Below are positions 390 through 21,506 of a DNA stretch of 22,586 bases, piece by piece (positions within the stretch are counted from its first letter, which is position 1; each line of letters opens with the position of its first letter). The notes below the pieces were generated by a model. It did no database searches, was not told where the DNA came from, and worked only from the letters and a program-made list of their open reading frames with translations. Source of the DNA: Bdellovibrionota bacterium. Lineage in GTDB: Bacteria; Bdellovibrionota_C; UBA2361; JBIKWN01. The DNA is taken from the NCBI GenBank assembly GCA_044356295.1, contig JBIKWN010000037.1:1-22586 (forward strand), given 5' to 3'. The position numbers and the translations under genes are program-made.

Positions 390-740
390 ATGTTCCCACA
401 CGAAAAGTTTAGTCCTTACCAATTCAGCATTCAGTTCATCGCACTCACAAACCAACTAATCCCAACACTACCCCGCGGAAACGGCGAACTAGTCGATCAG
501 CTACGTCGCGCAGCCACATCAATCAGTCTTAACATCGCAGAAGGCACAGGACGAACCTCCATAGCCGACCTTAAGCGTTTCTATTCTATCGCACGCGGTT
601 CAGCACTAGAGTGCGCAGCAATTCTCGACGTACTATTTCACCTAAAATTAATCGAACGTGAAAACCACAATAAAGGACGAGAGCTATTGAAGAATGTTGT
701 CGCGATACTTACGGCCATATGTAGAGAAAATAAATCTTAG
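390..740 (+). CDS. Four helix bundle protein (23S rRNA IVP / TIGR02436-like, Avd-related fold)
   Basis: 116 aa with the family signature 'LVDQLRRAATSISLNIAEGTGR....KRFYSIARGSALEC'. Confidence 0.93.
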   Translation: MFPHEKFSPYQFSIQFIALTNQLIPTLPRGNGELVDQLRRAATSISLNIAEGTGRTSIADLKRFYSIARGSALECAAILDVLFHLKLIERENHNKGRELLKNVVAILTAICRENKS

Positions 741-2457: not shown

Positions 2458-5412
2458 CTAGGACTTTAGCCACTCATCCCCGAATGGATATAAGGCATAG
2501 GGGTCAATCTTGTTGTCTTTCAAGTAAACTTCGAGATTTGCCAGGCCTTTCGTACATAGACGATGAAAAAACTCTACTGGGAAAACTAGTTGCCAGTTAA
2601 TTTGATCGGCTTCACCCAACTCAGACATTGAGTGATAGTAAGGCGTTGCCCCATCGTTGCTCATTTCCATTCCGTATCCAGGTTCTCGAAAGTTATGTAC
2701 TAGATGGTTTCGATAACTATAGAATAACTCGGAGTATACCTTTTCTTCGAGAAATTTCTTTTCTCCCTCTACAGCAATGGCACCTAATTCGCTCAGAGTT
2801 GGATCTCTTTCTGGGCGTATTATGTGACCCTTTTCCCATGAATCTACAATTGAGGAGAGATGGGCGTAAAGCTTTCCTTTTTCCTGGTTTTTTCGCTTCA
2901 GTGCCAATAGTAGTTGCGGGGCGCTAACTCTATCGGCGTCTGTCCAATCACAACATTCCTTCAGGAACTGAATAAACTTAACTCTGTTGCGGCTATCGGA
3001 GAATCGAGCATGTGCAATAGTATCAAGAAGGCATGAGTAAAGAATCTTTCTATTCTGCCTTGTAGGAACAGATTCGATTCCCTTCAATTGCTTATCGAAA
3101 TAAGAGATGAATTTTAACGTTGAAACAGGTTCCTCGCCATCTTGAAGATGCAAAAGTGACGAGTTGTACACGAATCCTTCTGGATCCCAAGCGTGCCGTA
3201 GATCTTCACGACGTCGAAAAGTCTTTGGCTCAGAATAGCAATCGAGCCGTTCGAGCTCAGGCTGCGAGAGAATTATAAGTCGATCAAATGCTCTTTTTGC
3301 CTCTTTCAACACGCTTCTTTCGACTAGTGTGAATGTACCCGTCTTGGCTACACACACATATGTTGAAATTCCAACAGATTCTTCGACCTTTTGAGCGACC
3401 GAGATCAAATTATTGAGATCTTGTTGCTCGATTTCGCCACCTTGATCCTTAGCTTCCCCGATTATCAGAGATGGAACTCCTTCTCTATCGCTGTACAAAC
3501 AACAAAAATCGATTTCACACTTACCAACCTCGGATGATAAATGAATTCCCACCGAGTAAGGCAGAATGCCCATCGAACCTTCGAGATTAATATTCAAAGC
3601 TTGGAGCGCCAAACCTACCGGAATTCCCCCTTCTTGGTTATCATCACGGGACAACAACCCTGATTTTCTGAACTTCCAGTCGTTCCCACCTTTCAAGTAT
3701 CGTCCAACACGGAACTCCTTTGCACAAAACTTACATTTTGTGTTGGTTTTCAGTTCGTCTAGTGAAATCCAAGCATCGAGATTGCAATTAGGACACTCAA
3801 TTGAGATGCCTGGCATTAGCAGATCTAAGTCGACTAGCCATTCAAAGATTGAGTGAGGGGTGGGATTTTTACCTTTAATGCCGAAGTCATCATACTCAAT
3901 TAGCGGTTTAGCTTTCAGCTCATGATTTGGATGATTGCCAAATATAATTTTTGTAGCTTCACTACGAGTAACTGAATCACCAATTCTTAACTTTGAAATT
4001 AATTTTCTTACTCCTTCAATCTTGAGTGCTCGAAAGCCCTCAATCCCACCCAAGCGTTGGATGAGTTGCAGAACTACGTGCGAGGACTTACGAACTGCTG
4101 CTTGGAATCCAGCCTGTTCAAAAAGAGCGAGAAAAAATGAGTTAGGATCGTATGGTCGAAGAGAAACAACCTCATCGGTTGCATGACTCAAGACTGAAAG
4201 ACCAAAGGGAGCAGGACGGGCACGATCATACGCCGTAAAGTAAATTTGCTGCCTTCCAAAGAATTCGTTCAGCTCTGGTATAAATGGAGTTGAATAACAC
4301 TTGAACTCATCATGGTTCCGATACTGAATATCAACAGCAAAGTGCTGTCTATAAGAACAGTTTGCTCCATCAAATGGTTTGTCGGATATAGCAAAAGAAA
4401 TTGAGGCTTTTCCATCTGATTCGTTTGCAAATCCCAACGTGTCTCTGGGTCGAGTGCTGTATCGATTGTCAAACTGATCATCTATTTGTTCGATTCTAAG
4501 AAGTGAAAGCTGAATTTTTCCTTTCGCAAATGCTGCCTCTACCTCAGTCTTAAGTTTTTCTTCAACTCCTTGTTCAACCGACTCACAACTCAAATACCCA
4601 ATTTCACCACGAAACTGTTTCCCTCGGAGCTTTTCACAAATATTTTGAATGAAGAATGTAACGGATGGCTCAAAACGACCCCATGAGTCAACATCGATAA
4701 ATATTGTCTTTGCTCCAGTGGCTCGCACGTTCCAGAACAGGGTCATATCTTTCACTTTGGAGACAGACCCGAATATGAAGAGTAGCCGACCGTTGCTGTG
4801 TTTAAATCCTCTGTTTGTGAGTAAACAATTAGTTAGAGATAGGTAAGACGGCGCTAGCCAAAATTCTTTTGGTAGCTTGCCGCCGTTCTCCATGTGGTAG
4901 TCCTGCACATCAAAAAACTCGGCAGTTACACTTTTATAGTCAACAGCGGAATTATCAGTGGCAGGGAAACATCCCTTAGTCATAATCAACGTGCCAAGCG
5001 AATCACGCTGGTCAAACTTGAAGCGACTAAGTTTTGTAATAGGGTGATTGGCGTCTTTCTTTACCTCTTCACTCAAACCTGGGAAAAAATGAACTGCCTC
5101 GATTACACTCGGCTCAAGTCTTCCGTGGTGATTTTTATCGAGAAGACACCATTTATGTTCATATTCAAGAATATTTCTAGGAGGTGAACCCTCTTTCGGA
5201 TTATTTAGGTAAGAGACAGCATCTACAGCGTACTTTTTTGCTAAAACCACAGGTGACGGTAAATCATCCACCTGAAAAATGTAGTTCCTAACTCCGCCCC
5301 AAATACAAGTGTTCCAAGTAATGGCCTCTCTCAATTGATTAGCATCACCGTTATCAATAGCCCAGGCTATACGAAGAGGTCTGTACGCTATTTCGGCTAC
5401 GGTATTCGCCAT
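2458..5412 (-). CDS. Uncharacterised 984-aa protein: unknown N-terminal region + Zn ribbon + PD-(D/E)xK nuclease + C-terminal HEPN-like domain; putative defence effector
   Basis: C540PNC..C560KFC zinc ribbon; 'EID635F...IIGE653AK655D' nuclease motif; 'LFYSYR901NHLVH906' RxxxxH motif preceded by the helical 'LYSCLLDTIAH..RVKFIQFL' segment. Starts 9 nt after the hsdR stop. Confidence 0.75.
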   Translation of the reverse strand: MANTVAEIAYRPLRIAWAIDNGDANQLREAITWNTCIWGGVRNYIFQVDDLPSPVVLAKKYAVDAVSYLNNPKEGSPPRNILEYEHKWCLLDKNHHGRLEPSVIEAVHFFPGLSEEVKKDANHPITKLSRFKFDQRDSLGTLIMTKGCFPATDNSAVDYKSVTAEFFDVQDYHMENGGKLPKEFWLAPSYLSLTNCLLTNRGFKHSNGRLLFIFGSVSKVKDMTLFWNVRATGAKTIFIDVDSWGRFEPSVTFFIQNICEKLRGKQFRGEIGYLSCESVEQGVEEKLKTEVEAAFAKGKIQLSLLRIEQIDDQFDNRYSTRPRDTLGFANESDGKASISFAISDKPFDGANCSYRQHFAVDIQYRNHDEFKCYSTPFIPELNEFFGRQQIYFTAYDRARPAPFGLSVLSHATDEVVSLRPYDPNSFFLALFEQAGFQAAVRKSSHVVLQLIQRLGGIEGFRALKIEGVRKLISKLRIGDSVTRSEATKIIFGNHPNHELKAKPLIEYDDFGIKGKNPTPHSIFEWLVDLDLLMPGISIECPNCNLDAWISLDELKTNTKCKFCAKEFRVGRYLKGGNDWKFRKSGLLSRDDNQEGGIPVGLALQALNINLEGSMGILPYSVGIHLSSEVGKCEIDFCCLYSDREGVPSLIIGEAKDQGGEIEQQDLNNLISVAQKVEESVGISTYVCVAKTGTFTLVERSVLKEAKRAFDRLIILSQPELERLDCYSEPKTFRRREDLRHAWDPEGFVYNSSLLHLQDGEEPVSTLKFISYFDKQLKGIESVPTRQNRKILYSCLLDTIAHARFSDSRNRVKFIQFLKECCDWTDADRVSAPQLLLALKRKNQEKGKLYAHLSSIVDSWEKGHIIRPERDPTLSELGAIAVEGEKKFLEEKVYSELFYSYRNHLVHNFREPGYGMEMSNDGATPYYHSMSELGEADQINWQLVFPVEFFHRLCTKGLANLEVYLKDNKIDPYALYPFGDEWLKS

Positions 5413-5421
5413 GCTTATAAC

Positions 5422-8400: not shown

Positions 8401-8805
8401 GTTGAAACTCGGTGAGTCTTGTACTTTCGTATAGAGTCTGACTGCCCAAGTCAGTACACCATGCAGAGATTTAACGATCTCAATTCCGTCATACTGACGA
8501 ATCTGAACATCACTGTGTGCTGCTTGGTTTCCGATTTTGTGAATCAGTCTTATGTATTGAAAGAGACCAGAGGGAGAGACGAGCTTTTGAAATGTTGGTT
8601 CGTGAATCAGGGCTGAAAGATTGTCTTGATATGGTCTCTTTAAGGAACTGTCATAGTCATAAAGCCATTTGACAATCTTTTCTAATGCACGTCTGGCGTA
8701 GAATGCGGATGTTCTTGGTTGAGTTAAAGCGTACTGCTCTGCATGGGAGGCATCTTCCTTTAACTTTGACCATTGAAGGGGGATGAAGTCGAAGTTAGAG
8801 GGCAT
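5422..8805 (-). CDS. hsdR: Type I restriction enzyme R subunit (EcoAI/EcoEI-like), about 1127 aa
   Basis: Nuclease motif 'FVDYVLW...IVEAKR'; helicase motifs MATGTGKT, DEAH, GLTATP and QMIGRGTR; EcoEI-type C-terminus. The start is placed at the ATG at 8805 (MPSNFDF) behind AGGAGG, rather than at the ORF-track start 8883. Confidence 0.96.
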   Translation of the reverse strand: MPSNFDFIPLQWSKLKEDASHAEQYALTQPRTSAFYARRALEKIVKWLYDYDSSLKRPYQDNLSALIHEPTFQKLVSPSGLFQYIRLIHKIGNQAAHSDVQIRQYDGIEIVKSLHGVLTWAVRLYTKVQDSPSFNSSLVPSIDASAVIKESKRTIEELQARLQSEDDRFECGRKELQKNEEEIARLQKEVEELKARNIQRVKETPQIITEADTRKWIIDVMLRESGWDKFVDARDVEYPVKGMPNSKGEGFVDYVLWGDDGLPLGIVEAKRTSKDPIEGQRQAELYADCLEKETGQRPIIYYTNGYDIWVWDDRVYPPRPVQGYATKDELQLLINRRKTKGSLRDIEPNRDIINRPYQIEAAARVVERLEIERQRRSLLVMATGTGKTRMSIALVEILMRQNWIKRVLFLADRTALVKQAKKRFAEHLPNVGAINIVSETEEENTRLVFSTYHSMMNLIDESKTDGKKRFGTNYFDLIIIDEAHRSVYHKFKAIFEYFDSLLIGLTATPRSEVGKDTYGLFNCENNVPTHWYELDQAIADKYLVEPRPIVVPTKFHRDGIKYDELSPEEQDEYEETFFDDETGTMPKEIEPAALNSWLFNKDTVDKVLAHLMQNGIKIEGGDKLGKSIIFAKNHNHAVFIEERFNVNYPHLAGKFLRVIDNQVKYADTLIDVFDVSTKDPFIAVSVDMLDTGIDIEEIVNLVFFKRVKSRTKFWQMIGRGTRLCEDLFGQGQDKQCFYIFDYCENFEFFGKNPKGIEAQTQESIKEKIFKRRLQIARLLDVDANKNDDLKALHNELLDQLHTQVATANIESFVVRPHRRYVEKYIERETWDNLKPNDYHDISKHLSGLPYPDTDDEFARRFDLLCLNLAVSFIEVTKRQEGYKESVVDLARGLEKKKNIPAVASKLDYIKTIQSEDYWENLTVPAVERLRKELRELIKFIDHDSGISSVYTNFEDKFGEAVEVREFIPGHRDRENYRLKVERFVREHQDHITIRRLMRNKPITLGDIQGLEEILFSDQGIGDRGQFEKTFGKQSLGKFIRSIVGLDRDAAKEVFGEFLVGKNLSADQITFINQIVEHLVKNGVMNPDRLFEQPFTDFHAEGLAGVFPNDAERILAVIDDVNRRAEAA

Positions 8806-9997
8806 GAACCTCCTGACGTGTTCGTCTTCCCTGAGATGACAGACACGTATGTATGCCCTTCTCAGAAAAAAGAACTTTGCCAAGGTTGGCGATAAGCCTA
8901 TCGTTCCACTGCAAGCTCTGACTCATTCTCGAATCTGCCTCCTGTAATTTGCAGGCTAGATTCACAAACCTTTCTTGTATCTCTAATGGAGGTAGCATTA
9001 TCGGAAGCTGCTTGAGCTTAATCCCCGTTAGATGTGCAATTGTGGCACTGCTAGTATGCTCAATGAGTCCTCCTCGTTCAGCCAACACACGCATGAAGTA
9101 AGAAAGGTATTCAGGCAGGAGATACCGAATATTGGGACGAACTCTGTGAAGTGCCTTCTGGAAATACATTTCTTGTTTTTCCTCTCTCCATACCGCACAC
9201 CTTCCAACTTCTCCACCTTCACAAATCATTACATCACCTTCACGAAGAGCGAACTCTTGTCTATCTGACTCATCGAAATCCATCTGATAAATCGCGCTCA
9301 AATCAAAGTAGCCCCACTTAACATTAGTGTTGCGAAGATAGGGTCTAGGATTGAGCCCAGTCTGCTTCTTGCCATCAAGCATCTTACCGAGCCTGGTTTC
9401 AGCTACATCGACTAAAGCCTTTTGATTCCAATTCATGGAGTTCTGACTTGGATCTCCAAACATTTCCAAAAACACTGATCGCAAAAAGGAATCAGTTAGC
9501 TCAATCGCCTTCTCACGCTTTTGGCGAATGGCATCTGCTTTTTCGAGGATTGCAGCGATGCGTTTTTGTTCGGGGAGAGGAGGGAGAGGAACTAATGTTT
9601 CAAGAAACTCTCTCCGATTGATGTGCTTCATGGTCGAGCCATGGGTATGTTTCATCATTGATCGAATTGAAGACTTCAAAACTATCTTCAAATAAGGCAG
9701 ATGCACCTTGTCTTTGAATGGAACAACTTTGAAGATGTGTTGGTTCAACACTGCTGTGTCAGCTTCAGTCCATTCAAATACGTCAAGCGTGGCAGACCAC
9801 GAAACCAGTATTGTTCCAGGGGCAACAAGATACTTTGGGTCAACAACTTTGTTGGTTCGATTATATGGCTTTGTTGGATCGCTAAGATTTTGAATCCTGA
9901 TGATTCTTCGCCCTTCAGATTGCCAGTCTGATGGTTTGAATGCCATCCCGTTTATAAAATCTGCGATTTCACCGAGGGGGACTTGATGAGACTTCAT
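8795..9997 (-). CDS. hsdS: Type I R-M specificity subunit
   Basis: Two TRDs separated by the conserved region 'PLPPLPEQKRIAAILEKADAIRQKR...LRSVFLEMFGDP', with a second 'LPPLEIQERF' repeat. Overlaps the hsdM stop and the hsdR start. Confidence 0.95.
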   Translation of the reverse strand: MKSHQVPLGEIADFINGMAFKPSDWQSEGRRIIRIQNLSDPTKPYNRTNKVVDPKYLVAPGTILVSWSATLDVFEWTEADTAVLNQHIFKVVPFKDKVHLPYLKIVLKSSIRSMMKHTHGSTMKHINRREFLETLVPLPPLPEQKRIAAILEKADAIRQKREKAIELTDSFLRSVFLEMFGDPSQNSMNWNQKALVDVAETRLGKMLDGKKQTGLNPRPYLRNTNVKWGYFDLSAIYQMDFDESDRQEFALREGDVMICEGGEVGRCAVWREEKQEMYFQKALHRVRPNIRYLLPEYLSYFMRVLAERGGLIEHTSSATIAHLTGIKLKQLPIMLPPLEIQERFVNLACKLQEADSRMSQSLQWNDRLIANLGKVLFSEKGIHTCLSSQGRRTRQEVHAL

Positions 9998-11478
9998 GCC
10001 AACATTCCCCTTAAATCATTAAGGTCTTTTCTAATCTCTTCCTCAATTTGATCGAGTTGGTCCAGAATCAAAGCAGGTGCCACATATTCAACCTCTTCAT
10101 GCTCGTGATGCCTGTACTTGTTTATAGACAAATCATAATGGTTCTCAACAATCTCACTCTTAGGCACAAAGAACGCCTTCCCATTCCTCTCCGTATCTTT
10201 CTTCGGATCTCTTTTCGCCCACTCCTCAAGAATGTCTGAAATATCATTCTTAGCAATCGGATCACGCTTATCATCCAAGCTGAACCCATCTGCTTCCATG
10301 TCATAAAACCAAACATGATCGGTTCCACCTGAGTTGGTTTTAGTAAAGATCATGATTGCAGTTGAAACGCCTGCATAAGGCTTAAAAACACCTGAAGGCA
10401 TAGAGATGATGCCGTCTAGCTTGTGACCTTCTACAAGGCTTTGACGAATCTGAGCATGGGCGTTTGATGAACCGAAGAGAACGCCATCAGGCACAATGCA
10501 GGCGCATCTTCCACCTGGCTTTAGCTGCTGCAAAAAAAGTGAAAGAAAAAGAAGCTCGGTCTTTTTGGTTTTACTTAACGCCAAAAGATCGCTTGATACT
10601 TCATCGTAGTTAAGTGAACCCGTAAATGGAGGGTTAGCTAAGATCAAGGTATATGCATTACGCATTCCCTTGCCTGTCTCAGAGAGTGCATCAACTCTAT
10701 CAATATGCGGATTTTCAACACCATGAAGCACCATGTTCATTGCGCCAATACGGAGCATTGAAGCGTCAAAGTCAGTTCCGCAAAACAGCTTGTTATTGAA
10801 ATGAGCCTTCTTCTTCTCATCGTGAAAGATATCGGGATGAACTCTGCGAAGGTATTCCCCTATCTCAACTAGGAAACCACATGTTCCACAGGCAGGATCG
10901 TTCACGATGTCATCTGGCTTCGGCTGCATTAAGTCAACCATCAACTTGATGATGTGCCTTGGAGTTCGGAACTGACCGTTAGTACCAGCAGAGGCAATCT
11001 TTGAAAGTAGATATTCGTAGAGATCGCCTTTGGTATCTCTATCTTCCATCGGAATATCGTTGAGCAGGTCAACGACACGAGCAAAGAGTGATGGGGTTGG
11101 AATTACGAAGACCGCATCTTTCATGAACCTAGCGTATGCGCTTTCGTTGCCACTTGATTGGCGATTGGGAAGGGTCTCTTTAATAAATGGAAATACTTTA
11201 TCTCTGAAAAGTTCATACATCTTTTCAGGTGAGCCAAGGTCTTTGAAACGAGACCAACGAAGGCTCTGCTCTTGATCGTTCTCTAAAAAGATTGGTTCTT
11301 CGATAGGTTTCTTTAGGAGATTAGCTTTCTTTTCACGGGCAGTATGTAGTTCGTCTAGTCTACGTACAAAAAGTAAGTAAGTAATTTGCTCTATAACTGT
11401 GAGGCCATTAGAAATTCCACCTGACCAAAAAGCATCCCAAACCTTGTCTACTTTTGATTTTAATTCACCGGTGATCAT
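9994..11478 (-). CDS. hsdM: Type I R-M N6-adenine methyltransferase subunit
   Basis: 'GQFRTPRHII', motif I 'DPACGTCGFL', motif IV 'NPPF', and an HsdM N-terminus 'MITGELKSKVDKVWDAFWSGG'. Confidence 0.97.
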   Translation of the reverse strand: MITGELKSKVDKVWDAFWSGGISNGLTVIEQITYLLFVRRLDELHTAREKKANLLKKPIEEPIFLENDQEQSLRWSRFKDLGSPEKMYELFRDKVFPFIKETLPNRQSSGNESAYARFMKDAVFVIPTPSLFARVVDLLNDIPMEDRDTKGDLYEYLLSKIASAGTNGQFRTPRHIIKLMVDLMQPKPDDIVNDPACGTCGFLVEIGEYLRRVHPDIFHDEKKKAHFNNKLFCGTDFDASMLRIGAMNMVLHGVENPHIDRVDALSETGKGMRNAYTLILANPPFTGSLNYDEVSSDLLALSKTKKTELLFLSLFLQQLKPGGRCACIVPDGVLFGSSNAHAQIRQSLVEGHKLDGIISMPSGVFKPYAGVSTAIMIFTKTNSGGTDHVWFYDMEADGFSLDDKRDPIAKNDISDILEEWAKRDPKKDTERNGKAFFVPKSEIVENHYDLSINKYRHHEHEEVEYVAPALILDQLDQIEEEIRKDLNDLRGMLA

Positions 11479-11697: not shown

Positions 11698-12699
11698 TTA
11701 AGCCGGCCAATAAATCCGCTTTAAAGGCACCATCGCCCGAATCTCAGGGTCTAAATTATCATAATGCTCAATAACACTCTCAACCAAGTAATCTAAATTC
11801 ATCAGTGTCAACGGAATTGTCGCCCTATCAGCTTCATACTGTGCATCTTTAGTAAACCCACCAGTACTAACATAAAGCCCTTTATCATCCTTATGCCGCC
11901 CACCAAGAAAACTTCTAATCTCCTGCGACCCCATTGATGCTTGACGGTGCTTAACTTCAACTATTATCCGAGGCTGCTCAAATCCAAACCCATCTGGTGA
12001 AGCAACAATATCCCGCCCTCTATCACTTCCAGCTGGCGAAATTTTGGTTTTATAGCCCATCGCACGAAGCATTCCTGCCACAAGTTCCTGCATTTGCTCC
12101 CAATTAAGCCTGATAAGCATGTCTTTGATAAATTCACGGGATTGCCCTTGAACATCTTCGAGTAGTTCAGATTTTTCAGTATCAAGTTCGTCAGGCTCGG
12201 ACGTGATACCTTTAGACTGCGTACTAGTTCCTTTATTTGAGGAAAGCATTTCATCAAGTACTTCTTTTGAAACTAAAAAGAGCGTCGCGATTGAGCCAAG
12301 CTTATTTTTAGCCTGAATGCTTAAGGTGTCTCTACTTACAGAATCTGTCCATGTAATAGGCCTTGTATGCTTTTGTTCTGCCCGAGTTGAATCGAACTTG
12401 TAGGAGCCAGTTACTTTTCCTATCCAGTACATTCGAGTATCAGAATTATAGGTTACAACGAAATCATCATTTTGGATGTCCTTTGAAAATCGGTAGAGCA
12501 TGCCTGCTGTAAGTATTGATTTTCCTTTGGAATATTCCGGGTAAGAATTAATGACTGCTTCTAAAATACTTTCTCTTGAATTAAAGCGAGATAAATCACC
12601 TACGTTATCCCAGCCAAGTGTAACTGTGCTGGTGAATAAAAATTGATCAATATTTTCAGCAGCTCTACCTGCTCGAATCATCCAATTGCTCTTATTCAT
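11698..12699 (-). CDS. mrr: Mrr-family (type IV) restriction endonuclease with an N-terminal putative modified-base reader domain
   Basis: Mrr_cat motifs 'MQELVAGMLRAMGY...GSDRGRDIVA...IIVEVKH...IRSFLG...GLYVSTGGFTKDA', plus an N-terminal 'WMIRAG...GW...' domain typical of this subfamily. Confidence 0.9.
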   Translation of the reverse strand: MNKSNWMIRAGRAAENIDQFLFTSTVTLGWDNVGDLSRFNSRESILEAVINSYPEYSKGKSILTAGMLYRFSKDIQNDDFVVTYNSDTRMYWIGKVTGSYKFDSTRAEQKHTRPITWTDSVSRDTLSIQAKNKLGSIATLFLVSKEVLDEMLSSNKGTSTQSKGITSEPDELDTEKSELLEDVQGQSREFIKDMLIRLNWEQMQELVAGMLRAMGYKTKISPAGSDRGRDIVASPDGFGFEQPRIIVEVKHRQASMGSQEIRSFLGGRHKDDKGLYVSTGGFTKDAQYEADRATIPLTLMNLDYLVESVIEHYDNLDPEIRAMVPLKRIYWPA

Positions 12700-12766: not shown

Positions 12767-13387
12767 TTATCTTTTATCAACCAGTTCCCACAAAATAATC
12801 CTTGCAATCCATGCAGGTGCTTTTGGTGCATCAAGCTTAAGCCGCTTTTTGTCCTCGATAACTAGTTTGCGTTTAATCTTAAGAATTAATTGTGGGGTAA
12901 TATTATTTGCACCTACATGTTTTAATGCTTGAATGATAGTTCCCGATATTGTCCCAGCCACTTTCATATTCTTGGGAGTTGTATTCTTGAATGTAATTTC
13001 ACCGCCGTTTATTTTGACTTTTCTGCTTAAGCCGTCCGTCAGAAAGACGAGTTTACTAGGAACTTGCTCAGTTAGTCCTAGCAGATTTGCAGCGTACGCA
13101 CCTGATGGCTGTATTCGTATTTGATATTTACGTGCTAGTGCTTCTGCGACTTTCGATAGCCGTGGCGGCAGTACCCCTAGTAATTTATGCCTTTCAGGGT
13201 AGTCATATATGCCATGTCCAATTCTGCGGAGGACTCCTGCATCAACTAGGCGGGAAAGGGATTTCCGAATGCTTGCGGAATTTTCCAAATCAAGAAAGTC
13301 ATTCTGAGTAAACACCCAACCCCTCTTCTTGCCATAAATCCGACTTAGTATAGTAATTTTAGCTGGTTGCAGGGATTTTATGAGCAT
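12767..13387 (-). CDS. DUF6088 / AbiEi-like (type IV TA antitoxin-type) wHTH regulator, with no adjacent toxin
   Basis: 'VFTQNDFLDL...SIRKSLSRLVDAGVLRRIGHGIYDYP...PSGAYAANLLGLTEQVP....FLTDG.SR...IIQALKHVG....APAWI'. Confidence 0.88.
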   Translation of the reverse strand: MLIKSLQPAKITILSRIYGKKRGWVFTQNDFLDLENSASIRKSLSRLVDAGVLRRIGHGIYDYPERHKLLGVLPPRLSKVAEALARKYQIRIQPSGAYAANLLGLTEQVPSKLVFLTDGLSRKVKINGGEITFKNTTPKNMKVAGTISGTIIQALKHVGANNITPQLILKIKRKLVIEDKKRLKLDAPKAPAWIARIILWELVDKR

Positions 13388-13392
13388 AGATT

Positions 13393-13420
13393 GTCACATA
13401 TATTAGTAAATATTTGTGAC
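13393..13420. promoter_or_regulatory. Inverted repeat directly upstream of the AbiEi-like gene; likely autoregulatory operator
   Basis: gtcacatatatt-agta-aatatttgtgac (11/12 match), 5 nt from the start codon. AbiEi proteins are known to repress their own promoters via inverted repeats. Confidence 0.65.
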
Positions 13421-13510
13421 GCTTGAAATAGTTTTTCGAGGGTTAAAATCCTGGCTTATAAAACCCTAGCCTAACTATGCAATCATCACAGGCCAAATAA
13501 ATAATCCCTA

Positions 13511-13960
13511 CTAAGCAACAAGCTTCATAGTATCAACAAAAATACCGCCACCCTGATCCTTAGGAACCACTTCAAGCAAAGAGTAAACTTCTGTAAAGAC
13601 CTTTGGTTTTGTTGATATACGACTTTGAATAAACAGCCGAATATCCTTTTCAATTCCCCAAGCCATGTCTGTAGATTTATGAAGCTTTTTCTCCCACTTC
13701 ATTACTGCAACATGAGAAACACAAAACCTTTGTGCAAATGCACTTAAGGTCATTTCAAAATGTCTTCTAATAAACCTAACGTGTGCACCTGTTAGGCGAC
13801 CTTGGAGGGATACTAGTTGTCTCAGTATCTCACGATCCAGTGACTTATAATTGATCTTTGGCATCCACTCACCACGAACATATACAAATTCTACGTTACT
13901 TAGAACCACAGGAAAACCGACTAGATTATCAACATAACGTTTTACGATTTTTGTTTTCAT
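13511..13960 (-). CDS. MqsA-like HTH antitoxin (lacks the zinc-binding cysteines)
   Basis: 'RLTGAHVRFIRRHFEMTLSAFAQRFCVSHVAVMKWEK' XRE HTH. Begins 4 nt after the DUF4258 gene. Confidence 0.75.
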   Translation of the reverse strand: MKTKIVKRYVDNLVGFPVVLSNVEFVYVRGEWMPKINYKSLDREILRQLVSLQGRLTGAHVRFIRRHFEMTLSAFAQRFCVSHVAVMKWEKKLHKSTDMAWGIEKDIRLFIQSRISTKPKVFTEVYSLLEVVPKDQGGGIFVDTMKLVA

Positions 13961-13964
13961 ATTC

Positions 13965-14267
13965 TTACTCTATATCAATGACAGTAATAATCAGCAGACC
14001 GAAATCATCGAAACTTACTATTACTCGGATATCTTTAATTTCATCAACCTTGCCTCTTAATGCATACTTCCAACAGCGATAATGAAAATCAAAAGCATCT
14101 TTCGATTTCTCGTGGTAACCATTGAGCAATACTTCAGTTACATCATTACGACTAACATCACGCTGTGTCATTCGAATTCTAGCGTGCTCCGTATAGAGAT
14201 AATCGCCCGACTCAATGCATTTTCGTACCTTCAGAAGCAAATGCTTTTCTTTTACCGCTTTTTTCAT
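13965..14267 (-). CDS. DUF4258-family putative RelE-fold toxin
   Basis: 'YLYTEHARIRMTQRDVSRNDVTEVLLNG...KYALRG....DIRVIVSF....LLIITVI'. Confidence 0.85.
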   Translation of the reverse strand: MKKAVKEKHLLLKVRKCIESGDYLYTEHARIRMTQRDVSRNDVTEVLLNGYHEKSKDAFDFHYRCWKYALRGKVDEIKDIRVIVSFDDFGLLIITVIDIE

Positions 14268-17114: not shown

Positions 17115-18983
17115 ATGAAGAACTTTACAAATTCAGTCACACGCCTTATCGGACAAAATATTATATTTACCACTCTGCTACTTTTTCTAGCCACCCTCAC
17201 GACTGTCAGAGCGTACGGCGACAATATTGTCGCTAGAACATTAAATAATAATCAATCATTATCAATTTATTCACATCGCTGCACTCTTTCACTCAAAACA
17301 AGCACCGCTTCACGCATAACTGTAAGCTGTTCAAAGTTCAACAAAACTCGTTTTCAGCTCAGACCTGCAAAGCATTCATATCTAACACCAAATCAGAGTG
17401 CCGTGATTAAGGCTCGAGCATGTAGCCTCGTTGTTAACAAAAATTCTGCTGGGCTCATTAGAATACGGTGCACTTCACCATCAACGCCTACAGTTACTGC
17501 TACTCCAACATCAACACCTACTCTTACTGCTACATCAACGCCTACACCAACAACGACTCCTACAAGTACACAAACGCCCATCCCACTTATTACACTAGGT
17601 GGTACAATTAGCGGGCTTTCAGGCAGTGTTGTTCTGCAGAACAATGGTGGTGATAATCTTACTAGTACAAGTAATGGAAGTTTCACATTTCCAACAGGTC
17701 TTCCTACAGGAAGCCCTTACAGTGTTACTGTTTTAACTCAACCCGCTACGCAGACCTGTATAGTTACCAACGGCTCAGGAACCGCGGGCTTTTCAAACAT
17801 CACTAACGTTAACGTAACTTGCGTCGATAATTCGACAACTCTTTCTGCAAGCCTCAGTCTGCTTGCCTTAAGCGTTACTGGAATTACAGAATCTGGTGTT
17901 AGTGGAACACCAAGCTCTGGATTGCCAAGGGTGATTACGATTACTAATGTCGGATCCAACACTGCGCAAAATCTTAGCGTGAGTTTCCCTACTTTCCCAT
18001 CCGGTACGACTTCTTCTACTACATGCGGAGCAACCCTTGCCGCTTCCAGTAGCTGCACAATCACAATTACGCCGGGTGCTAACGCAACTTCGAATGGTAC
18101 TGCTGCGTGTACAAATGGAACTGCTCCAGTTCCCGGTATTGTATCCGTCGGCGGTGATAATTCTAATACTGTAACTACAAACGTTGTAGTTCTTGGATAC
18201 GGTTGTATCTTTCAAGGAGGTCATGTCTATGCATTTGATGATACTAATCCAAGCTCAAATAGTGTTGGTGGTAAAGTGATCACAGTAGTAGACCAGGCAG
18301 CACCTTTTCCTAGTGGTCTTGCATGGTCGTCTAATGGTGTTTCGAGTACTGACGATAGCTCCGACATTCTTCCTGGAATCTCAGAAACCTCTACTACTGC
18401 AACCGCGTCACCTACATACAGCCTGGCTCAAACTACTTTTAACTCTACTTATTCTAATACTGGAACTTTTCCATTTCCTTCATCGGGATCATTTCCTAGC
18501 TGTAACGGTGGTACAGATGGTTCATGCAATAGTTCAAATATTCTGACACTCTACAATACGTATGTAACTAATTTCGGTGTTGGAGGATCTCCGTATTCTC
18601 TTTCAGCTGGACCAACAAACGTGAACTTTTATGCAGCAGGATTATGCACACAGACAATCAACGGATTTAGCGACTGGTATCTTCCTGCTGTTTGCGAAAT
18701 GGGTCCTGCAGCTAATGGATCTGGCTGTTCGGTTAATCAAAACGTTGTTGGTAGCTTGTCGATGCTTCTTGGAGATCCAAGTGCAGGGACTCCGAGTACT
18801 AGTTGCGCAGCTGGTGCGAACTGCTTGGTCGGTTTCTATTGGAGCTCTACTCAGCTTTCATCTAATCCCCAGTCACAAGCATGGTATCAGTATTTTAGTT
18901 CGGCCGGCGGCTCGGTTCATAGTGGCGCTTTGAAGTTTAGCCCTATGGGAGTTCGATGCTCGCGGACTATTTCTTATTCATAG
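17115..18983 (+). CDS. Secreted/surface protein: signal peptide, duplicated Cys module, Thr/Pro linker, Ig-like repeats, C-terminal DUF1566 (C-type-lectin-like) domain
   Basis: Hydrophobic N-terminus; PT/ST-rich linker at about aa 120-157; 'GGTISGLSGSVVLQNNGGDNL....NGSFTF....Y.VTV.TQP..QTC.VTNGSG' Ig-like repeat; 'GFSDWYLPAVCEM...YWSSTQ...AW...GVRCSR' C-terminus. Confidence 0.8.
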   Translation: MKNFTNSVTRLIGQNIIFTTLLLFLATLTTVRAYGDNIVARTLNNNQSLSIYSHRCTLSLKTSTASRITVSCSKFNKTRFQLRPAKHSYLTPNQSAVIKARACSLVVNKNSAGLIRIRCTSPSTPTVTATPTSTPTLTATSTPTPTTTPTSTQTPIPLITLGGTISGLSGSVVLQNNGGDNLTSTSNGSFTFPTGLPTGSPYSVTVLTQPATQTCIVTNGSGTAGFSNITNVNVTCVDNSTTLSASLSLLALSVTGITESGVSGTPSSGLPRVITITNVGSNTAQNLSVSFPTFPSGTTSSTTCGATLAASSSCTITITPGANATSNGTAACTNGTAPVPGIVSVGGDNSNTVTTNVVVLGYGCIFQGGHVYAFDDTNPSSNSVGGKVITVVDQAAPFPSGLAWSSNGVSSTDDSSDILPGISETSTTATASPTYSLAQTTFNSTYSNTGTFPFPSSGSFPSCNGGTDGSCNSSNILTLYNTYVTNFGVGGSPYSLSAGPTNVNFYAAGLCTQTINGFSDWYLPAVCEMGPAANGSGCSVNQNVVGSLSMLLGDPSAGTPSTSCAAGANCLVGFYWSSTQLSSNPQSQAWYQYFSSAGGSVHSGALKFSPMGVRCSRTISYS

Positions 18984-20832: not shown

Positions 20833-21207
20833 ATGGTAGTGTTTAAGCTTAAGGATTTCTCCAAATGGGCTTCAAAGGTTCATCTATTTGATTGGCACCT
20901 CAGTAAAGCCGTTGAAGAGATGAATAGAGGTTTGCTAGGAGACAGACTTGGCTCGCATATCTATAAAAAGAGGATAGGCATAAGTGGTCGAGGTAAAAGA
21001 GGTAGTGTTCGAACTATTCTTTGCTATAAAAAAGATCAGAGAGTCGTGTTTCTTTATGGATACTCAAAAAATGAGTCTGATAACATCGAAGAGTACGAAC
21101 TTGATGCCCTTCGTGAGTTCTCAAAGGAGCTTATCTCCATTTCGAACGATGAATTTGATAAGAAGGTAGCATCCGGTAAAATTTTAAAAGTTCAGGAGAC
21201 AAACTAA
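20833..21207 (+). CDS. RelE/ParE-family (HigB-type, toxin-first) toxin
   Basis: 'VFKLKDFSKWA...L.KAVEEM.RGL....LG..IYKKRI...GRGKRGSVRTI......VFLYGYSKNE.DNI'. Confidence 0.9.
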   Translation: MVVFKLKDFSKWASKVHLFDWHLSKAVEEMNRGLLGDRLGSHIYKKRIGISGRGKRGSVRTILCYKKDQRVVFLYGYSKNESDNIEEYELDALREFSKELISISNDEFDKKVASGKILKVQETN

Positions 21208-21506
21208 TGAAACGTAAATCTCTCACACAAACTCTTGTAGACTCCGCAAAAACTTTAGGATTTAAAAAGGCAACTATCGATAAGTTAGAAGCTCTTAACA
21301 TTCCGACGGTGACCGAATTGAGTCCCTCTGCTATTAAGAAGCTTCGAAAGGATATCAAAGCAAGTCAGTCAGTATTTGCCGCTCTTCTTAATGTTAATCC
21401 ATCTACAATACACAAGTGGGAGCAAGGTAGTGTAAGGCCACAAAATGCAGCACTTAAATTATTACATGTTCTAAAGATTCATGGGGTTAGTGCGCTTCGA
21501 GACTAG
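21207..21506 (+). CDS. XRE-HTH (HigA-type) antitoxin
   Basis: 'LSPSAIKKLRKDIKASQSVFAALLNVNPSTIHKWEQGSVRPQNAALKLL'. TAATG stop/start overlap with the toxin gene. Confidence 0.92.
   Translation: MKRKSLTQTLVDSAKTLGFKKATIDKLEALNIPTVTELSPSAIKKLRKDIKASQSVFAALLNVNPSTIHKWEQGSVRPQNAALKLLHVLKIHGVSALRD

Follow-up and report, generated by a model that had tools for sequence, protein, structure and literature searches.

A predicted nuclease chimera behind hsdR: two unnamed protein families joined in a Bdellovibrionota restriction locus

Behind hsdR in a type I restriction-modification (R-M) locus of a Bdellovibrionota bacterium (GenBank assembly GCA_044356295.1, contig JBIKWN010000037.1) lies a gene for a protein of 984 residues. 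The stretch of DNA analysed, hereafter the window, is a whole 22.6-kb contig (22,586 nucleotides) of a 2.96-Mb genome in 128 contigs. An initial annotation, made from the letters of the window, described the gene product as a zinc ribbon and PD-(D/E)xK nuclease joined to a HEPN-like RNase, and proposed it as a candidate new defence system tied to the type I R-M enzyme. The locus raises the question what this protein is: a system with an architecture of its own, a guard of its R-M enzyme, or a one-off join of parts that normally occur apart. The boundaries of its homologues point to the last of these.

Origin of the 984-residue protein

Homology searches show that the open reading frame (ORF) is a chimera of two independent protein families. 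A word-indexed search retrieved nine relatives of 752–775 residues, which cover just 73–77% of the query. With both halves taken together, an exhaustive search reached 1805 cluster representatives at E≤1e-3, of which 345 lie at E≤1e-30. Among the best 150 rows of these 1805, 148 align only with residues 1 to ~760, one (P0058, 542 residues) aligns only with residues 767–983, and one is the window's own piece. The N-terminal part, residues 1 to ~756, belongs to a large family of stand-alone proteins of ~760 residues. A search with residues 760–984 among shorter proteins identified 36 full-length, free-standing homologues of 215–258 residues with 36–45% identity, which constitute a separate family of free-standing ~222-residue proteins. 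Since the N-terminal homologues end at query positions ~756–760 and the other family begins at ~767, the short linker that had been noticed near residue 760 is identified as the fusion joint, and marks a real boundary between two families.

The combination is a singleton. In a search of metagenome contigs 558 pattern matches were obtained, of which 405 encode a relative of the N-terminal part, and 80 loci were retained; at none of these 80 is a protein of the C-terminal family encoded. Together with the 148 of 150 best rows that are confined to the N-terminal part, this speaks against the single architecture supposed at the outset: the fusion seen here represents a single lineage and a one-off event. 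It also appears to be recent. The nearest relatives of the N-terminal part lack the C-terminal part, as illustrated by P0002 (53% identity, 755 residues) and by the protein at locus L016, which is 66% identical over residues 417–756 and whose ORF ends 13 residues later. In a tree of C-terminal domains the window copy is sister to that of P0058 (support 100/99) and nested among free-standing forms, and the two halves of the gene are alike in GC content (0.426 and 0.420).

A fusion known from one contig could be an error of assembly, a concern raised with the initial annotation. A contig of run X2, from a sample and a study distinct from those of the likely source run, covers positions 3037–3880 with 0 differences and spans the joint (Table 1); short contigs from two further runs touch this region as well. 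Because this independent contig crosses the joint without differences, the fusion is real, and an assembly artefact as its origin was ruled out.

The position of the gene was also confirmed. It begins 9 nt past the hsdR stop codon on the same strand, with the junction reading TAG-GTTATAAGC-ATG. The span first given to it, 2458–5421, was right at its lower end; the upper end included the 9-nt spacer, and the ORF itself ends at 5412. No terminator-like or promoter-like site was found at the junction with hsdR, and the gene is therefore likely co-transcribed with hsdMSR as the last gene of the operon.

The two modules

The whole protein has no match in Pfam (E up to 10), NCBIfam, PADLOC or the PDB sequences, and none of the 5027 models of PADLOC-DB v2.0.0 matches it at E≤0.01, in agreement with the earlier view that it corresponds to no named system. 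A search for the Walker A pattern G....GK[ST] was empty, as had been anticipated, and neither a McrB GTPase, a coiled coil, a helicase, an ABC ATPase nor a Toprim domain was found in the Pfam and PADLOC scans. The motifs on which the initial annotation was based, C540xxC543, C560xxC563, D635, E653-x-K655 and R901NHLVH906, are all present at the residues named, and they are conserved in homologues: the four cysteines, D635, E653 and K655 in 113 aligned sequences of the N-terminal family, R901 and H906 in 37 sequences of the C-terminal one. Such invariance indicates that the motifs are more than chance.

Twelve positions are invariant in the 113 sequences (G147, W227, R469, G535, C540, C543, W548, C560, C563, D635, E653 and K655), and E633 and D665 are nearly so; in a smaller alignment (A1, n=10) K655 is absent from one of the ten sequences, P0010. 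The zinc ribbon proposed from the sequence is supported by the four invariant cysteines and by weak Pfam matches to Zn_Ribbon_TF in 11 of 61 members; weak matches to zf-CHCC occur in 7 of the 61. No nuclease family of Pfam was matched in the same 61 members. The conserved acidic...(D/E)xK motif of the PD-(D/E)xK superfamily is present as E633-x-D635 and E653-x-K655.

The ESM Atlas model of the 984-residue protein is of low confidence, with a predicted template-modelling score (pTM) of 0.48 and a predicted local distance difference test score (pLDDT) of 0.64. The Atlas neighbours of residues 530–760 in this low-confidence model are the family itself, with template-modelling (TM) scores of 0.85–0.88, and a short form of 322 residues (0.86), followed by Card1_endonuc (0.48–0.49), Mrr_cat (0.42/0.50) and then ATPases containing DUF234. 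The nearest named neighbours of the presumed PD-(D/E)xK core are thus restriction-endonuclease-fold domains, consistent with the nuclease proposed at the outset. A profile of the module from 45 loci and the window (A6) was compared by hhalign with 26 Mrr_cat domains (A7), and aligned over 83 columns (E 0.0033) with D635 on the aspartate of Mrr and E653xK655 on its QxK. Membership of Mrr_cat (PF04471) itself was rejected, the query and the 61 members having no such Pfam match and the hhalign probability being 9.8%. It is concluded that the N-terminal part has a predicted active site of the restriction-endonuclease type and belongs to no named family.

The region preceding this core is less readily assigned. 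Residues 1–530 have no Pfam or PDB match, and none of the modified-DNA reader domains SRA, EVE/ASCH, YTH and DUF3427 was matched by sequence; an Atlas search with the same residues retrieved the family itself, followed by rows with TM scores of 0.21–0.28. Within residues 1–330 the conserved positions are R11, P12, G39, G40, N43, P44, D64, D137, G147, G215, D222, W227 and N228, and an FWNLRA motif is present. The homologues P0153 and P0168 begin with a methionine near the equivalent of residue ~315, so that residues 1–330 may be a separable region. The conserved block at residues ~440–530 is possibly helix-turn-helix-like. Profile searches against PDB sequences (A2, A3, A5, A6 and P0058) gave nothing significant, the hits being a CmcI stretch (E 0.41) and a weak lead to ribosomal protein uS3: at profile positions ~368–421 five of the seven listed sequences are the uS3 N-terminal domain, at E 0.018–1.4. 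We take this domain to be of KH type, and a KH-like, nucleic-acid-binding segment at residues ~368–425 is accordingly offered as a lead only.

Some copies of the N-terminal family are incomplete. A divergent relative at L104 (G298:C317, 1420–3462) has an open frame of 681 residues that retains the N-terminal domain along with the zinc ribbon and stops ~65 residues past the latter, so that most of the nuclease core is missing. The copy at L017 (1122–3392) is split into two adjoining ORFs, and the copy in G343 (L103/L105, G343:C63) has one TGA and two TAA codons inside the match.

The C-terminal family was aligned as 36 homologues plus the window copy (n=37), with four fragments left out. R901, H906, E910, P911 and G912 are invariant and N902 is nearly so, within a conserved block LFYTYRNxLVHEFREPGYG. 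The motif that defines HEPN domains is Rx4-6H with a polar residue after the arginine (PMC3710099); R901-N-H-L-V-H906 agrees with it, having one of the accepted residues (N, D or H) after the arginine. The AlphaFold2 model of this part (pLDDT 90.9, pTM 0.88) is mostly helical, with one β-hairpin, and places RNxLVH at the end of a helix spanning residues 133–147 of the 224-residue piece that was modelled. In Foldseek searches this model gave no PDB match at E≤1e-3 and none in BFVD at the same threshold, where the best row is an unnamed phage protein (E 9.4e-3). In a second look the best fold match was the HEPN RNase AbiV, with 5% identity and a score below the noise level of the tool for helical folds, and a PDB profile search with the family gave no HEPN match.

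Two other fusions bear the C-terminal domain, in both cases at the C-terminus. The protein at L007 (749 residues) carries ahead of it a DUF4209 domain (E 2.6e-20) in which the motif reads NLRNDVCH, and P0058 an N-terminal part with IRNDSIGH. DUF4209 is the C6orf70 family of HEPN domains (PMC3710099). Both fusions look like HEPN dyads, and the pairing with other Rx4-5H domains supports a HEPN reading of the C-terminal domain. Residues ~767–984 are described here as HEPN-like, the modelled helical fold coming closest, in weak matches, to HEPN RNases. Of the HEPN-like C-terminus first proposed, the RNxxxH motif has proved invariant and the fold matches have proved weak, which leaves HEPN plausible and not proven; the helical character expected of it is borne out by the model, and the fold search of the PDB was empty at E≤1e-3.

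A genome scan located 15 loci of the C-terminal family. Twelve of them hold an intact free-standing ORF, one is the L007 fusion, and the copies at the other two (L013 and L015) are unclear. The 15 loci share no conserved neighbour, and R-M methylase, specificity and HsdR families are absent from their vicinity; Fic, PIN, HNH, Schlafen-AlbA and antitoxin genes are scattered among the neighbours. An arrangement like that of type III toxin-antitoxin systems was considered and rejected, as no consistent tandem repeats were seen beside the 12 free-standing genes.

Distribution, context and possible roles

The surroundings of the ~760-residue family were analysed in 64 loci, after removal of 16 with a family protein that shares 90% identity or more with another. 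The genes at positions ±1 and ±2 number 157, and 150 of these neighbours were scanned against Pfam and PADLOC, the seven from L090, L093, L094 and L095 being omitted. All-against-all clustering revealed no conserved neighbour, the largest non-family cluster occurring in 5 of the 80 loci. R-M genes are found within two genes in 14 of the 64 loci (L018, L019, L021, L023, L026, L036, L037, L045, L064, L066, L079, L080, L086 and L087) and belong to types I, II, IIB/IIG, ISP and III. A known or candidate defence gene, R-M included, lies within two genes in 24 of the 64. The non-R-M defence neighbours are GmrSD/HEC-06 (L017), PsyrA (L029), a short prokaryotic Argonaute (pAgo) with TIR-APAZ (L031), NACHT (L038), PDC-S11 (L039), PDC-S49 (L043), PDC-S02 (L058), AbiV (L067), UzuA (L075) and a defence-type kinase (L090).

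Members of the ~760-residue family are found in defence islands, where their gene often closes an operon for R-M or another defence system. In 7 of the 64 loci an R-M gene on the same strand precedes the family gene, whose start falls between −32 and +58 nt relative to the end of the R-M gene. A copy on a Bradyrhizobium plasmid begins 3 nt past the gene of a YhaV toxin, with an 'abortive infection family protein' encoded close by, and at L031 (4917–10319) the family gene lies 31 nt downstream of genes for TIR-APAZ and a short pAgo (PADLOC pAgo_I, E 1.6e-133). The family gene at L031 forms the tail of a SPARTA-type operon.

The specific tie to type I R-M supposed in the initial annotation was not supported: at 50 of the 64 family loci the nearest two genes on either side include none for R-M, and the other 14 show mixed types. 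The same 50 loci conform to the description of type IV enzymes, that is, a nuclease without a cognate methyltransferase. The family is also sporadic. It was not found in the genomes of 40 relatives, and of the phylum's 124 genomes two carry it, the window's own included; the other copy lies at L098 (G108:C55, 2–1483). A scan of 400 genomes from another class located the N-terminal domain in 3, one of which is flagged as unpublished. The family is present in 2 of 72,556 plasmid records and has no match in 50,697 phage records. The gene preceding L098 shows UvrD-like helicase motifs (seen in BLASTP) and is not an R-M gene.

The account that we favour, although we hold it to be evenly balanced between right and wrong, is that the ORF, an intact chimera of recent origin, probably encodes a self-contained nuclease that acts as a second line of defence and is transcribed together with hsdRMS. 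We infer DNA cleavage, RNA cleavage, sensing and defence as its putative roles. The N-terminal and middle regions would bind and recognise nucleic acid of an invader and hold the enzyme quiet. The ExD...ExK core, presumably the normal effector of the family, would cleave DNA in the manner of a solitary (type IV-like) restriction enzyme without a methylase of its own, a reading consistent with the family's independence of a partner gene and its location in defence islands. Once dimerised, the appended HEPN-like module would cleave RNA and so provide a growth-arrest or abortive-infection arm. Coupling to the Hsd enzyme would come from shared transcription and mobility rather than from an obligatory protein complex, the last place in the hsdMSR operon allowing co-expression and co-transfer.

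Several points weigh against this account. The restriction-endonuclease fold rests on the motif and on the neighbours of an Atlas model with a pLDDT of 0.64, and the hhalign probability against Mrr_cat is low. The N-terminal 530 residues have no recognisable fold or ligand, so that 'sensor' is a guess. No Pfam HEPN model matches any of the 37 members of the C-terminal family, and hhalign of that family against AbiV gave a probability of 0.2%, with a comparison set of one AbiV-family sequence (the genome scan for AbiV matched 1 of 400). Many of the metagenome contigs are short, an upstream neighbour being available in 57 and a downstream neighbour in 54 of the 64 loci, and the counts of defence and R-M neighbours (24 and 14 of 64) stand without a matched control.

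One alternative is a C-terminal module that is not a nuclease but a helical binding, regulatory or metal-dependent (DinB-like) domain, which would tune or target the N-terminal DNase. Such a module would be in keeping with the missing sequence and profile links to HEPN families, and with free-standing members that have no conserved antitoxin-like neighbour or flanking repeat array, which is unusual for a free HEPN toxin. However, the invariant R-N-x-L-V-H fits the HEPN consensus, with its polar residue after the arginine, the best second-look match is a HEPN RNase, and the domain recurs fused to other HEPN-motif domains; we regard a non-nuclease as unlikely. A different alternative, put forward in the initial annotation, is a PrrC-like guard that would be silenced by contact with Hsd and freed as a DNase and RNase when a phage anti-restriction protein disables HsdR/M/S. 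Besides the 9-nt distance from hsdR on the same strand, this is favoured by the seven family loci directly behind R-M genes, by the N-terminal DUF4145 of HsdR, which is classed as HEPN (PMC3710099) and could in principle pair with the C-terminal domain, by the cis pairing of that domain with another HEPN-type domain in two other fusions, and by the same logic having been proposed for R-M-linked HEPN domains (PMC3710099, section 10). Yet R-M genes are missing from the vicinity of 50 of the 64 family loci, and where present they are of unrelated types, a heterogeneity that argues against a conserved protein contact. In addition, none of the 15 loci of the C-terminal family lies near R-M methylase, specificity or HsdR families, the protein has no ATPase or other known switch domain, and the arrangement with hsdR is a single case. 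A guard of this kind is considered unlikely.

A broader version of the same idea would make the ~760-residue family a general 'restriction back-up' nuclease, carried at the 3′ end of R-M operons whatever their type and firing when the upstream enzyme is blocked; in the present lineage it would have acquired a HEPN RNase as a trans partner for the DUF4145 of its own HsdR. We judge this very unlikely; if true, it would provide an ATPase-free counterpart of the PrrC-EcoprrI latent complex. Finally, the ~760-residue family might have no part in defence and be a nuclease of selfish or mobile elements, or a DNA repair or recombination factor, that accumulates in variable islands. Its patchy occurrence (none of 40 relatives, 2 of the phylum's 124 genomes and 3 of the 400 from the other class), the transposase, integrase or resolvase neighbours at L019, L028, L054, L059 and L094, and the 40 of 64 loci without a known defence neighbour are consistent with this. 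Against it stand the lack of a conserved link to transposase or integrase, the empty search of the phage records and just two plasmid records for the N-terminal part, and the repeated placement of the gene as the 3′-terminal member of R-M, pAgo and toxin-antitoxin operons, which together render a role outside defence decidedly unlikely.

The surrounding locus and its relation to known systems

The features of the gene and of the R-M locus are listed in Table 1. With its Mrr-type gene and hsdMSR the locus looks like an 'immigration control' cluster. In the N-terminal DUF4145 domain of HsdR the position that we take to be the site of the conserved arginine reads, by eye, as histidine (IHKIGNQAAH), so that the motif may be degenerate.

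Table 1. Coordinates in the window of the 984-residue ORF, its predicted regions and the adjoining R-M genes (aa, residues of the ORF named)
Feature	Position (nt)	Strand	Basis
Chimeric 984-aa ORF, ATG start, stop codon 2458–2460	2458..5412	minus	ORF list; intact in genome search
aa 1–330, N-terminal region of ~760-aa family, no assigned fold	4423..5412	minus	alignment
aa ~368–425, weak profile similarity to N-terminal domain of ribosomal protein uS3	4138..4311	minus	a lead only
aa ~440–530, conserved block G455 G456 K464 G467 R469 L471 A486 I490 L526	3823..4095	minus	alignments
aa 535–566, zinc ribbon C540xxC543...C560xxC563	3715..3810	minus	invariant Cys + weak Pfam
aa 575–730, restriction-endonuclease-like core	3223..3690	minus	invariant residues, Atlas neighbours, hhalign
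E633-x-D635	3508–3516	minus	
E653-x-K655	3448–3456	minus	
aa 757–766, fusion linker between two families	3115..3144	minus	homologue boundaries; X2 contig
aa 767–984, HEPN-like module	2461..3114	minus	
R901NHLVH906	2695–2712	minus	
hsdR, EcoEI-type C-terminus, 1153 aa	5422..8883	minus	Pfam/PADLOC scan
hsdR N-terminal DUF4145 domain, ORF aa 47–136	8476–8745	minus	Pfam E 1.5e-7
hsdS	8795..9997	minus	Pfam/PADLOC scan
hsdM	9994..11478	minus	Pfam/PADLOC scan
Mrr-type restriction endonuclease, just upstream of hsdM	11698..12699	minus	PADLOC PDC-S02, E 1.2e-93

Further genes of defence or toxin-antitoxin type occur in the window. On the plus strand a protein with a helix-turn-helix and a SocA/Panacea antitoxin-type region (826–1797) overlaps by 8 nt a PIN-domain gene (1790–2206); the pair (826–2206) is a likely toxin-antitoxin module, convergent with the 984-residue gene. 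A gene of the '23S rRNA intervening sequence protein' family lies at 390–740 (+), and the same family is found at L020 (2–301), two genes from a member of the ~760-residue family. Small defence or toxin-antitoxin genes are also seen at 12767–14267 (−) and 20833–21506 (+), comprising a DUF6088/AbiEi-like gene, a family-less 149-residue ORF beside a DUF4258 protein, and a RelE-type toxin with a helix-turn-helix/MqsA-like partner. Two repeats were observed: a 38-nt inverted repeat at 241–339, upstream of the gene at 390, with 87% complementarity, 23 nt between the arms and CTATG/TCTAAG-like units; and imperfect direct repeats at 17472–17571, with 46-nt units at a spacing of 24–30 nt, which in ORF 17115–18983 encode a Thr/Pro-rich stretch of a 622-residue protein with a weak Lcl_C match. 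Rfam and tRNA scans of the window gave no matches.

Among known systems, PrrC and RloC have a C-terminal HEPN-type nuclease, such as is predicted for the window protein, and the window gene, like that of PrrC, lies within a type I R-M locus, where PrrC is encoded and silenced (PMC3458546, PMC2610378, PMC3710099). Unlike these proteins, the window protein has no ABC ATPase or Walker A motif detectable by motif search, Pfam or PADLOC, and contains a predicted DNase domain of the restriction-endonuclease type; no sequence similarity to them was detected. The gene order also differs, since PrrC lies between hsdS and hsdR and the window gene behind hsdR. AbiV, a HEPN RNase that acts in lactococcal abortive infection (bioRxiv 10.1101/2024.05.05.592566), is set apart by the 5% identity, by the missing Pfam HEPN_AbiV match and because the free-standing homologues show no sign of a neighbouring RNA antitoxin or repeat array. 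Nucleases of the Mrr, Card1 and Can2 types share the D...(E/Q)xK motif in the same register and, with the caveat of the low-confidence model, are the nearest named structural neighbours of the core. They too occur in defence islands as solitary nucleases that lack a methylase of their own, and a true Mrr-type gene is present in the window; in contrast to them, the ~760-residue family has an additional zinc ribbon and an N-terminal region of ~530 residues without a known modified-base reader. PARIS fires on the appearance of a phage anti-restriction protein. PARIS and CoCoNuT resemble the present locus as restriction-related loci that add HEPN or other RNases, often beside type I R-M, but the window protein has none of the McrB GTPase, coiled-coil, helicase, ABC ATPase and Toprim domains searched for. 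CoCoNuT, described after the 2013 survey discussed below, is a further case of HEPN effectors in restriction-type loci that adjoin type I R-M (PMC11090510).

The closest precedent is a general one. According to section 10 of a 2013 survey (PMC3710099), HEPN domains have been fused to restriction-endonuclease domains 'on multiple independent occasions' in R-M loci, and the same paper proposed that a restriction-endonuclease-fold DNase and a HEPN RNase in an R-M locus form a multi-pronged or second-line defence, by analogy with PrrC. It also classed DUF4145 as HEPN, and the EcoEI-type HsdR with an N-terminal DUF4145 is an architecture described there (PMC3710099). The window protein shares with those fusions a predicted Rx4-6H RNase joined to a restriction-endonuclease-fold DNase, the R-M locus and the second-line logic. 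It differs in that neither of its families matches Pfam, NCBIfam or PADLOC, and in being a single lineage. A search of the literature, which covered passages from the text of that survey, returned this general theme and nothing tied to either family, bearing in mind that a text search cannot find a family without a name. The candidate new defence system of the initial annotation is therefore new in part: its families are unnamed in the models, whereas the design principle has been known since 2013 (PMC3710099). What is new is the two families and their particular join, not the principle.

Both families carry clear catalytic signatures and are yet unnamed in Pfam, NCBIfam and PADLOC; the sources that name members of either call them 'hypothetical protein' throughout. 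Because of its invariant ribbon and core, its lack of a partner and its clustering with R-M, pAgo, Lamassu, GmrSD and toxin-antitoxin genes, the ~760-residue family is a reasonable candidate for a single-gene defence nuclease. This candidate is the most useful product of the analysis and is cheap to test, and the 222-residue family would add one further branch to the HEPN superfamily. The fusion in the window can be regarded as a natural experiment, in which the two modules are workable in one polypeptide beside a type I system. As the HsdR encoded there also bears a domain of the HEPN family, the locus is a convenient place in which to examine the 2013 hypothesis of an R-M-linked HEPN second line of defence.

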